A stretch of DNA of 64,000 nt, taken from NCBI GenBank assembly GCA_964016885.1, contig OZ024761.1, positions 4,588,001 through 4,652,000 on the forward strand, read 5' to 3'. The position numbers and the translations under genes were made by a program. How positions within the stretch are numbered: position 1 is the stretch's first letter; the number at the start of each line of letters is the position of its first letter. The DNA comes from Eledone cirrhosa (Eukaryota). Under the pieces are notes generated by a model. That model saw only the letters and a program-made list of their open reading frames with translations. It made no database searches and was not told the DNA's origin. Below, one piece after another: positions 36,301 through 42,300 of the stretch.

Positions 36301-39300
36301 AGTGACTCTCCCATCTCCAAGCTACACATATCTCCAGCAATTCTTTCCTGAGACATTCTAACCCCATGTCCATACTATCAGAGCTGTGATCTCTCAATTC
36401 GGAGAAGTAACAGCTTTACCTGGAGTGACTCTCCCATCTCCAAGCTACACATATCTCCAGCAATTCTTTCCTGAGACATTCTAACCCCATGTCCATACTA
36501 TCAGAGCTGTGATCTCTCAATTCGGAGAAGTAACAGCTTTACCTGGAGTGACTCTCCCATCTCCAAGCTACACATATCTCCAGCAATTCTTTCCTGAGAC
36601 ATTCTAACCCCATGTCCATACTATCAGAGCTGTGATCTCTCAATTCGGAGAAGTAACAGCTTTACCTGGAGTGACTCTCCCATCTCCAAGCTACACATAT
36701 CTCCAGCAATTCTTTCCTGAAACATTCTAACCCCATGTCCATACTATCAGAGCTGTGATCTCTCAATTCGGAGAAGTAACAGCTTTACCTGGAGTGACTC
36801 TCCCATCTCCAAGCTACACACATCTCCAGCAATTCTTTCCTGAGACATTCTAACCCCATGTCCATACTATCAGAGCTATGATCTCTCAATTCGGAGAAGT
36901 AACAGCTTTACCTGGAGTGACTCTCCCATCTCCAAGCTACACATATCTCCAGCAATTCTTTCCTGAGACATTCTAACCCCATGTCCATACTATCAGAGCT
37001 GTGATCTCTCAATTCGGAGAAGTAACAGCTTTACCTGGAGTGACTCTCCCATCTCCAAGCTACACATATCTCCAGCAATTCTTTCCTGAGACATTCTAAC
37101 CAAACTCCCATAGTACCAGAGCAGTGATCTATCAATTTGGAGAGGTAGCGACTCTACCTGGAGTGACTCTCCCATCTCCAAGCTACACATATCTCCAGCA
37201 ATTCTTTCCTGAGACATTCTAACCAAACTCCCATAGTACCAGAGCAGTGATCTATCAATTTGGAGAGGTAGCGACTCTACCTGGAGTGACTCTCCCATCT
37301 CCAAGCTACACATATCTCCAGCAATTCTTTCCTGAGACATTCTAACCAAACTCCCATAGTACCAGAGCAGTGATCTATCAATTTGGAGAGGTAGCGACTC
37401 TACCTGGAGTGACTCTCCCATCTCCAAGCTACACATATCTCCAGCAATTCTTTCCTGAGACATTCTAACCAAACTCCCATAGTACCAGAGCAGTGATCTA
37501 TCAATTTGGAGAGGTAGCGACTCTACCTGGAGTGACTCTCCCATCTCCAAGCTACAAACTTTATCGAGTAACGTTACTCCAAAGAACCATTTGGTGTATA
37601 ATTGTAAATTACCTCCCTACTTACCACCATAGGTACAGACATAGCTACCTGTAGCAGTGGAGACTTCTGGTTCCTCGGCCCTAGGGCTACCTCCCTACTT
37701 ACCACCATAGGTACAGACATAGCTACCTGTAGCAGTGGAGACTTCTGGTTCCTCGGCCCTAGGGCTACCTCCCTACTTACCACCATAGGTACAAACATAG
37801 CTACCTGTAGCAGTGGAGACTTCTGGTTCCTCGGCCCTAGGGCTACCTCCCTACTTACCACCATAGGTACAGACATAGCTACCTGTAGCAGTGGAGACTT
37901 CTGGTTCCTCGGCCCTAGGGCTACCTCCCTACTTACCACCATAGGTACAAACATAGCTACCTGTAGCAGTGGAGACTTCTGGTTCCTCGGCCCTAGGGCT
38001 ACCTCCCTACTTACCACCATAGGTACAGACATAGCTACCTGTAGCAGTGGAGACTTCTGGTTCCTCGGCCCTAGGGCTACCTCCCTACTTACCACCATAG
38101 GTACAGACATAGCTACCTGTAGCAGTGGAGACTTCTGGTTCCTCGGCCCTAGGGCTACCTCCCTACTTACCACCATAGGTACAGACATAGCTACCTGTAG
38201 CAGTAGAGACTTCTGGTTCCTCGGCCCTAGGGCTACCTCCCTACTTACCACCATAGGTACAGACATAGCTACCTGTAGCAGTAGAGACTTCTGGTATCCT
38301 CGGCCCTAGGGCTACCTCCCTACTTACCACCATAGGTACAGACATAGCTACCTGTAGCAGTGGAGACTTCTGGTTCCTTGGCCCTAGGGCTACCTCCCTA
38401 CTTACCACCATAGGTACAGACATAGCTACCTGTAGCAGTGGAGACTTCTGGTTCCTTGGCCCTAGGGCTACCTCCCTACTTACCACCATAGGTACAGACA
38501 TAGCTACCTGTAGCAGTAGAGACTTCTGGTTCCTCGGCCCTAGGGCTACCTCCCTACTTACCACCATAGGTACAGACATGGCTACCTGTAGCAGTAGAGA
38601 CTTCTGGTGTCCTTGGCCCTAGGGCTACCTCCCTACTTACCACCATAGGTACAGACATGGCTACCTGTAGCAGTGGAGACTTCTGGTTCCTCGGCCCTAG
38701 GGCTACCTCCCTACTTACCACCATAGGTACAGACATGGCTACCTGTAGCAGTGGAGACTTCTGGTGTCCTCGGCCCTAGGGCTACCCCCCATACTCACCA
38801 CCATAGGCGCTGAACTGGCCAGCCGCAGGTGTGAGCCCCACGACGAGTTGGAATGACTTTTCCAGCGCGTCTCCCTTGCCGGCCTCTGGGGAAACGCCTT
38901 CTCCATTCTGTCCACGGGAGCTGTGGGGAGGTCACCAATATGATTGACTGACTTGTCATTTTATTAGTTATCTATTTGTTGGTCTTAAACGATATCTCAC
39001 AAACATTTGAGTTCATTGTGGTGGTCTTTTAACTGCTAAACTTGCTATTTCCGAGAACAATTATGTTTTATCGTAAATTGTAAATACGTACGACGATTGC
39101 AACTGGAGTTATCACTACCCAACAAGCTTTCCAGTAGATTCCGGGTTCAAAGCCCAGCATCATCTTTATATCCAAACAGAAATTCTTGAATCCTGAAGAG
39201 GAAAAAAAAATATTAAGATGCTTTGTTGTTGATGTTGTTGTTGTTGATGGCAATAGGGGAGAGAGAGAGAGTGAGAGAGAGAAGGGGGAGAGAGAGTGGT

Positions 39301-42300
39301 AAACTTACCATAAACCCAGTTGATGGCAATAGGGGAGAGAGAGAGAGTGAGAGAGAGAAGGGGGAGAGAGAGTGGTAAACTTACCATAAACCCAGTTGAT
39401 GGCAATAGGGGAGAGAGAGAGAGTGAGAGAGAGAAGGGGGAGAGAGAGTGGTAAACTTACCATAAACCCAGTTGATGGCAATAGGGGAGAGAGAGAGAGT
39501 GAGAGAGAGAAGGGGGAGAGAGAGTGGTAAACTTACCATAAACCCAGTTGATGGCAATAGGGGAGAGAGAGAGAGAGAGTGAGAGAGAGAAGGGGAGAGA
39601 GAGTGGTAAACTTACCATAAACCCAGTTGATGGCAATAGGGGCGAGGGAGAGAGTGACAGAGAGAAGGGGAGAGAGAGAGTGACAGAGAGAAGGGGGAGA
39701 GAGAGAGTGACAGAGAGAAGGGGGAGAGAGAGTGGTAAACTTACCATAAACCCAGTTGATGGCAATAGGGGAGAGGGAGAGAGTGACAGAGAGAAGGGGG
39801 AGAGAGAGTGGTAAACTTACCATAAACCCAGTTGATGGCAATAGGGGAGAGGGAGAGAGTGACAGAGAGAAGGGGAGAGAGAGAGAGTGAGAGAGAGAGG
39901 GGGAGAGAGAGTGGTAAACTTACCATAAACCCAGTTGATGGCAATAGGGGAGAGAGAGAGAGTGACAGAGAGAAGGGGAGAGAGAGAGTGACAGAGAGAA
40001 GGGGGAGAGAGAGAGAGTGATAGAGAGAAGGGGAGAGAGAGTGGTAAACTTACCATAAACCCAGTTGATGGCAATAGGGGAGAGAGAGAGAGTGAGAGAG
40101 AGAGAAGGGGAGAGAGAGTGGTAAACTTACCATAAACCCAGTTGATGGCAATAGGGGAGAGAGAGAGAGAGTGAGAGAGAGAAGAGGAGAGAGAGTGGTA
40201 AACTTACCATAAACCCAGTTGATGGCAATAGGGGAGAGAGAGAGAGAGTGAGAGAGAGAAGGGGAGAGAGAGTGGTAAACTTACCATAAACCCAGTTGAT
40301 GGCAATGACTTCGGTGAGACAGACACAGAGAAGTCCGAAGCTGGCACTGTAATTGTCCATTAGTGTCAACACATACATACCACCCTGTCAAAAGTAACAT
40401 TTGGTCATTGATGATGATGATGATAGTAATAACAATGGTTTCTTATATAGGCACAAGGCCAGCAATTATCCCAGTGTATTACTGGTACTTTATTTTATTC
40501 ACCCCGTAAGGATGAAAGGCAAAGTTAACATTAGTGGAATTTGAACACAGATATCTTGAGAGATATGACAGTATGGTGATATCTTGAGAGATATGACAGT
40601 ATGGTGATATTTTAAGATATATGAAAGTATGGTGATATCTTGAGATATATGACAGTATGGTGATATCTTGAGATATGACAGTATGGTGATATTTTAAGAT
40701 ATATGAAAGTATGGTGATATCTTGAGAGATATGACAGTATGGTGATATCTTGAGAGATATGACAGTATGGTGATATCTTGAGATATATGAAAGTATGGTG
40801 ATATCTTAAAATATATGAAAGTATGGTGATATCTTGAGATATATGACAGTATAGTGATATCTTAAGATATATGAAAGTATGGTGATATCTTGAGATATAT
40901 GACAGTATGTTGATATCTTGAGAGACATGACAGTATGGTGATATCTTGAGATATGTAACAGTATGGTGATATCTTGAGATATATGAAAGTATGGTGATAT
41001 CTTAAGATATATGAAAGTATGTTGATATCTTAAGATATATGAAAGTATGGTGATATCTTGAGAGATATGACAGTATGGTGATATTTTAAGATATATGAAA
41101 GTATGTTGATATCTTAAGATATATGAAAGTATGGTGATATTTTAAGATATATGAAAGTATGGTGATATTTTAAGATATATGAAAGTATGTTGATATCTTA
41201 AGATATATGAAAGTATGTTGATATCTTAAGATATATGACAGTATGATGATATCCTGAGAGATATGACAGTATGGTGATATTTTAAGATATAATGGGGAAA
41301 TGAAACATGATACAAAATATGAAATATAAAGACCACAAACTCAGACCGCAAAGGGACGTAACTCTATGCTGCAAAGAATGGTGTGCGACCCTCTACCGAT
41401 ACTGCCAATCCACCTACCTAATGGTTTCTTATATAGGCACAGGGCCAACAATTTTGGGAAGGTAAAGTTGATTATATACACCCAGTGTATTACTGGTACT
41501 TTATTTTATCGACCCCGTAAGGATAAAAGGCAAAGTTAACCTCGGTGGGATTTGAACTCAGTACGTAAAGGGCCATAACTCTATGCCGCGAAGCCTGATT
41601 TCCGATGCTCTACCGATTCTGCCAATCACCACCCTATGTTTTCTGATTTAGGCATAAGGCCAACAATTTTGGGGAGGTAAATTTGATTATATAGACCCCA
41701 GTGCATTACTGGTACATTATTTTATTGACTTAGATATGATGAAAGGCAAAGTTGACCTGGATGGTATTTGAACTGAGAGAGTAAAGAGTCACACCCAGCA
41801 TTTGCCCGATGCTCTACCAAACCCGACAAATGTTTTCATTAGATGATGTTTGGAACATTACTTTAATCTGTTGACTGCCATGTATATTTTACACAGCTAC
41901 AGCTGCTGTGTTGACTGCTGTGTATATATTACATAGCTACAGCTGCTGTGTTGACTGCTGTGTATATATTACACAGCTACAGCTGCTGTGTTGACTGCTG
42001 TGTATATATTACACAGCTACAGCTGCTGTGTTGACTACTGTGAATATTTTACACAGCTACAGCTGCTGTGTTGACTACTGTGTATATTTTACACAGCTAC
42101 AGCTGCTGTGTTGACTGCTGTGTATATATTACATAGCTACAGCTGCTGTGTTGACTGCTGTGTATATATTACACAGCTACAGCTGCTGTGTTGACTGCTG
42201 TTTTTATTTTACACAGCTACAGCTGCTGTGTTGACTGGTGTGTATATATTAAACAGCTACAGCTGCTGTGTTGACTACTGTGTATATTTTACACAGCTAC

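Follow-up and report, generated by a model that had tools for sequence, protein, structure and literature searches.

A minisatellite across an exon-intron border repeats one SLC6 donor twelve times in Eledone cirrhosa, and an RNA-like run leaves the exon at the first copy

We analyzed a 64,000-nt stretch of Eledone cirrhosa DNA (contig OZ024761.1, positions 4,588,001 to 4,652,000; hereafter the window, whose own numbering is used throughout) that carries the 3' part of an SLC6 transporter gene. One intron of this gene is filled almost completely by a minisatellite whose first unit lies across the exon-intron border, and the 5' splice site (donor) of the upstream exon is present in 12 identical copies. 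We consider it highly probable that this is a young, border-spanning array, likely born by slippage, that splicing of the main transcript uses the first donor, and that the array is likely neutral intron filler. The features of the locus are listed in Table 1.

Table 1. Coordinates of the SLC6 gene and of the features in and around the array-bearing intron.
Feature	Position in window	Strand	Remarks
3' part of SLC6 gene, nine coding exons	30151..61044	minus	match to residues ~350-727 of Octopus protein
Coding exon, 100 nt, SLC6 (PF00209) transporter	40285..40384	minus	tblastn, P0001 residues 554-587; X2 contig with 0 mismatches
Authentic donor ATG|GTAAGT, first intron base 40284	40279..40287	minus	sole frame-keeping donor; X2 contig leaves here
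Intron	39193-40284	minus	1092 nt, between SLC6 exons 40285-40384 and 39092-39192
Minisatellite, 12 full units of 76-130 nt	39255..40306	minus	22 exon nt + 13 donor-side nt + CT tract
11 pseudo-donors	39303..40210	minus	none with AG directly before its 22-nt exon copy
In-frame TAA	40127..40129	minus	met by extra donors 3-11 and by intron retention
Partial 13th unit, 12 nt, then short AAC/ATC run	39254-39243	minus	likely seeding microhomology
Non-repeated intron end	39193..39242	minus	TTAAT, T-rich tract, CAG acceptor; read from sequence
Downstream coding exon, 101 nt	39092..39192	minus	tblastn, P0001 residues 587-620, 88% identity

Used as query, the exon returned a single candidate match, an Octopus bimaculoides protein annotated as glycine transporter 1 (PF00209). 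Homology and a frame that stays open across the junction place the gene among the SLC6/SNF transporters (PF00209), with residues ~350 onward in the window. Over six exons, identity is 85% to the O. bimaculoides protein (210/247, P0001), 84% to that of O. sinensis (208/247, P0003) and 84% to that of Argonauta hians (206/246, P0005), and it falls to 64-73% for four more distant proteins. The Octopus and Argonauta relatives share the same junction sequence, and none of the 13 homologues shown has an insertion at this junction. The nearest named relatives (XP_014775516.1, XP_036369246.1 and ATY46524.1) are annotated as glycine transporter 1 or 2, names that are homology-based. The exon borders at 31751 and 30321 were placed by sequence and homology. 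GlyT2 of Octopus vulgaris appears in a gene table for the gastric ganglion (PMC5736919), and in the arm nerve cord the results of a GlyT2 probe were mixed (bioRxiv 2024.04.14.589438); neither report is tied to this gene, for which a neural role is putative.

An earlier description of the window, made by a model from the letters alone (the sequence-only reading), had claimed that the intron is almost wholly a tandem array with 12 identical donors. Its coordinates hold: the array, including the partial unit, occupies 1042 of the 1092 intron bases (95%) and stops 50 nt short of the acceptor. The proposed unit make-up of 22 exon nt, donor and CT tract also stands, but the units are not uniform 77-mers and measure, in order, 77, 77, 77, 130, 103, 76, 129, 79, 76, 76, 76 and 76 nt. 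Unit 1 (40306-40230) spans the border, beginning with the last 22 nt of the exon (40285-40306), and the 35-nt core formed by these 22 nt and the 13 intron nt that follow is identical in all 12 units. The G of each donor GT lies at 40284, 40207, 40130, 40053, 39923, 39820, 39744, 39615, 39536, 39460, 39384 and 39308. Nine of the 12 units are distinct, with differences confined to the CT tract (95.9% pyrimidine), in which sub-duplications of 26-27 nt lengthen the longer units. A GTCA variant is restricted to the adjoining units 4-7, and the final four units are identical. The clustering of these variants looks like the outcome of stepwise evolution.

The intron contains 14 AG dinucleotides, of which the donors account for 12 and the acceptor for one; the remaining one lies at 39222. 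The possibility that the 22-nt copies act as a micro-exon cassette was rejected, since no copy is preceded by an AG. Near the 3' end of the intron stands TTAAT, which we take to be a branch-point-like motif. When nine exon ends and as many exon starts of the gene were compared with the window, this donor was the only one with more than one copy of its 16-mer. In the rest of the window, matches to the unit (16 of 33) are confined to GA tracts, and on this ground an origin of the unit from a mobile element elsewhere was rejected.

To address the origin of the array, we collapsed it to one unit. The resulting intron, ~116 nt in length, has a 12-nt stretch that matches the end of the exon and lies 76 nt from it. 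An end match of 12 nt was reached by none of 2000 base shuffles of the single-unit intron, and the other seven exon/intron pairs of the gene show matches of only 5-9 nt. The suggestion of the sequence-only reading that the array ends at a 12-nt match, as would fit microhomology, is borne out by these figures and by the location of the match at 39254-39243. The array was likely born by slippage between the two 12-nt matches. An ancestral single-unit intron of ~116 nt would have carried the match 76 nt from the exon end, one duplication between the matches would have produced two units, and further units would have been gained through unequal exchange and CT slippage.

The incomplete last unit fits a duplication seeded by microhomology. 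The signature of slippage models is a last unit left incomplete or a short direct match at the flank (Haber and Louis 1998; Taylor and Breden 2000; both as cited in PMC3389668), and microhomology-mediated tandem duplications have been described as a mostly neutral origin of minisatellites (PMC13167724). The octopod array would share with such duplications the short direct match that bounds the unit, the incomplete terminal unit and the later expansion; it differs in that the match is 12 nt long and that half of it lies in coding sequence. Alternatively, the terminal 12-mer could be not the seed but what is left of a 13th unit after truncation, or after the AAC run had overwritten the rest. The 12-mer does run directly into the AAC/ATC microsatellite, and both histories leave an identical sequence. 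However, an incomplete last unit is what slippage models lead one to expect (PMC3389668), seeding needs no additional deletion step, and the C/A-rich run provides part of the 12-nt match by chance. We therefore regard a remnant as possible but rather unlikely.

Seven minisatellite arrays occupy 12,826 of the 30,894 nt of the gene span (41.5%), and it is therefore unremarkable that one of them caught a donor. The chance that one of seven seeds includes a donor is 14% by a crude, after-the-fact estimate. We also observed that the core at 40272-40306 is self-complementary in two ways, as an RNA hairpin over the donor (~-7 kcal/mol) and as a near-palindrome around the GT. Speculatively, this hairpin might favour slippage.

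Only the first donor keeps the reading frame. With it, translation can proceed over 174 codons from 40384 until the stop codon at 30153-30151, and use of any of the other 11 donors leads to a premature stop. Recomputation upheld the claim that the first three extra donors lengthen the transcript by 77, 154 and 231 nt, that the first two shift the frame, and that the third and later ones meet the TAA within the array. Extra donors 1 and 2 run into stops in the next exon, at 39168-39166 and 39149-39147, respectively. In-frame length variants made through later donors were accordingly rejected. All 11 stops that follow from the later donors precede the last junction by 208-1072 nt, which would make the transcripts targets of nonsense-mediated decay (NMD), presuming that the usual junction rule applies in octopods. 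Since the first donor alone keeps the frame, the spliceosome must use the donor furthest from the acceptor to yield the protein. Use of donor 12, the last copy, would leave an intron of 116 nt.

We next turned to public sequencing runs. Of 23 listed runs, four with a share of at least 0.26 (X1-X4) were used, at the level of contigs and for the region 40190-40545; the runs X5-X20 (share 0.05-0.09) and three runs of restriction-site-associated DNA sequencing (X21-X23) were left out, a small share counting as no evidence. The contig comparison did not extend to the repeat-rich part below 40276, and depths are contig means. X2 is a single sample with neither library nor tissue on record, for which 32 pieces are listed and 89,045 more are unlisted.

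In X2, a 1779-nt contig (record 9) with a depth of 1013.7 aligns with 0 mismatches to 40284-40385 only. The aligned part consists of the exon and of a single G at either end; both Gs are common to the neighbouring exons. The contig stops at 40284, above the uncompared repeat part, and therefore leaves at the first donor. Its spliced form suggests that X2 is RNA, and its lengths point to a join to 39192, as the 130 remaining letters equal 100 of the next exon plus 30. The depth bins of X2 fit one additional piece, 40276-40306, with a depth of 12.9. A piece extending to 40313, the point at which read-through would start, does not agree with them, and no listed contig of X2 runs from the unique exon into the intron. 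The unit core is thus present at ~1.3% of the spliced contig (12.9 versus 1013.7). Because every form that passes the first donor must carry the unit core, such forms make up at most ~1.3% of the spliced form in X2; this is an upper figure, as unspliced RNA and DNA carry the core as well. In X2, one run seen through its contigs, the most upstream donor is the main donor used. The donor furthest from the acceptor, which the sequence-only reading had said the spliceosome must choose, is thus both the only frame-keeper and the one chosen in this RNA-like run.

This arrangement is known from the 37-bp variable-number tandem repeat (VNTR) in intron 7 of human F7 (Borensztajn et al. 2006, PMC1557585). 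Splicing there goes exclusively through the most upstream donor and was the same in constructs of 1-6 and of 8-12 units, and the copies became functional once the preceding donors had been disabled (PMC1557585). The octopod array is an exon-intron border minisatellite of the F7 intron 7 type: in both, the first unit lies across the border, identical donors are repeated in the intron, and the most upstream one is used. The two differ in that the units of the octopod array number 12, measure 76-130 nt and include 22 exon nt, whereas F7 has 5-9 units, each 37 nt long and including 4 exon nt. In addition, the octopod array fills 95% of its intron, ends 50 nt from the acceptor and has a non-mammalian host. 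The same architecture, with 10-25 units, has been described for CBS intron 13, intron 2 of the interferon-inducible 6-16 gene, LMNB2 and PDGF intron 4 (PMC1557585). LMNB2 (100 bp units) and PDGF (81 bp units), whose unit lengths are similar to those of the octopod array, use the authentic donor only (PMC1557585). A literature search found no cephalopod case, with subscription journals and supplements outside its scope.

The choice of the first donor may reflect oriented scanning or exon definition, as has been argued for human F7. The first donor would be the first to be transcribed and the nearest to the acceptor of its own 100-nt exon; the copies would have no acceptor in front of them, leaving the first donor as the only one able to close the normal exon. 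Transcripts that leak to a later donor would contain a premature stop, and their degradation would be likely. Literature searches for first-come or proximal donor choice found no paper. Folding predictions made with three window sizes gave the 9-nt donor almost equal pairing in each of the 12 copies, through a weak hairpin of ~-7 kcal/mol. As all 12 donors are predicted to be about equally paired, folding does not select the first, and structural masking of the copies is not supported. Compared to the other donors of the gene, this donor is predicted to be the least accessible of the eight.

Several points weigh against a young, neutral array that is spliced at its first donor. The evidence of donor use comes from the contigs of a single run with no library on record, and the join of its contig to 39192 is drawn from lengths. 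Since contigs lose rare forms and NMD depletes the products of later donors, the figure of 1.3% bounds steady-state RNA and not the splicing choice. At the 116-nt intron size offered by the last copy, proximal pairing across the intron could be favoured. Finally, CBS and 6-16 use the next two pseudo-sites as well (PMC1557585), and the CBS repeat is cited as linked to lower activity (PMC1395315). Such use of later donors was not seen in the octopod gene at contig resolution.

As in CBS and 6-16, there could be a sizeable, unregulated leak to extra donors 1 and 2 that is hidden by NMD and tolerated as a mild cost. The two nearest pseudo-sites are those used in the human genes (PMC1557585), and both octopod donors give stops, at 39168 and 39149. 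However, X2 shows no such contig among the listed pieces at a depth near 1000, and F7, LMNB2 and PDGF use the first site only (PMC1557585). We consider a leak of this kind quite unlikely.

The sequence-only reading had gone further and proposed that copy number tunes productive splicing against NMD, with more units leading to later donors or intron retention and so setting the transporter level. In line with such a dial, all 11 later donors give premature stops well before the last junction, and all 12 units keep the 35-nt core intact despite the variation of the CT tract. The human CBS 31-bp VNTR has been cited as a precedent for an effect (PMC1395315), and repeat length associates with splicing at many human loci (PMC10078293). 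However, an unchanged core is also expected of a young array, and there is no sign of varying copy number. X2 holds the unit core at only ~1.3% of the spliced contig, none of its listed contigs passes from the unique exon to the intron, and in F7 the addition or removal of units over the range 1-12 left donor choice unchanged (PMC1557585). The proposal is therefore not supported, and we judge it very improbable, although NMD and the cleaning of contigs would hide rare forms and no second allele was seen. The same low standing applies to a length-variable rheostat in which the copies nearest to the acceptor would capture a copy-number-dependent share of the pre-mRNA in some tissues or alleles, to be destroyed by NMD. 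If this were true, individuals would differ in transporter dose while steady-state mRNA showed the first donor only.

X1, X3 and X4 come from one sample, perhaps the source sample, and are DNA-like, with ~17 million records per run. In these three, contigs cover only the unit core 40276-40306, at depths of 89.6, 33.4 and 34.9, respectively. The single-copy exon is uncovered in these runs, which is not evidence of its absence. Cover of the core only is the expectation for a multi-copy core in thin data, and the depth is no copy number. An assembly artefact is extremely unlikely: none of the listed contigs crosses the array from end to end, long reads over it were not seen, and its last four units are identical, but nine of the 12 units are distinct, the GTCA variant is confined to neighbouring units and the core-only contigs are those expected if the core is multi-copy in the reads.

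The array adds a cephalopod case to an oddity already known from a few human genes. Here, the choice of the first donor holds with identical donors spread over 95% of the intron, the last of them 116 nt from the acceptor. The locus is suited as one row in a cross-animal survey of exon definition versus proximal pairing outside mammals, and it would gain greater weight only if copy number varies and shifts the mRNA level through NMD.

We made some further observations in the gene. Judged by length alone, the X2 contig seems to end 30 nt inside exon 31751-31903, and a GTGAG lies at 31873, 30 nt inside the same exon. This may be a cryptic donor, or the contig end may mark a graph fork one word-length past the junction. 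Three unrelated minisatellites (29 nt x 61, 123 nt x 19 and 78 nt x 15) stand back to back at 33236-38807 and take up most of the next intron. At 56574-59232, a 32-nt minisatellite of ~83 copies starts 56 nt past the donor at 59288, with that donor excluded.

The same 28-nt minisatellite is present at 40550-41291 and 61987-62841, in opposite orientation and 90% identical over 744 nt. These two arrays are ~21 kb apart and have five coding exons of the gene between them. If both are part of the pre-mRNA, they could form a long duplex, as a possible substrate for editing or an aid to back-splicing. Lastly, 40430-40545 is a piece of a very high-copy interspersed repeat, with a summed depth near 1e7 in the DNA-like runs. 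Elsewhere in the window it is matched 11 times, at 71-88% identity, and it resembles a short interspersed element.

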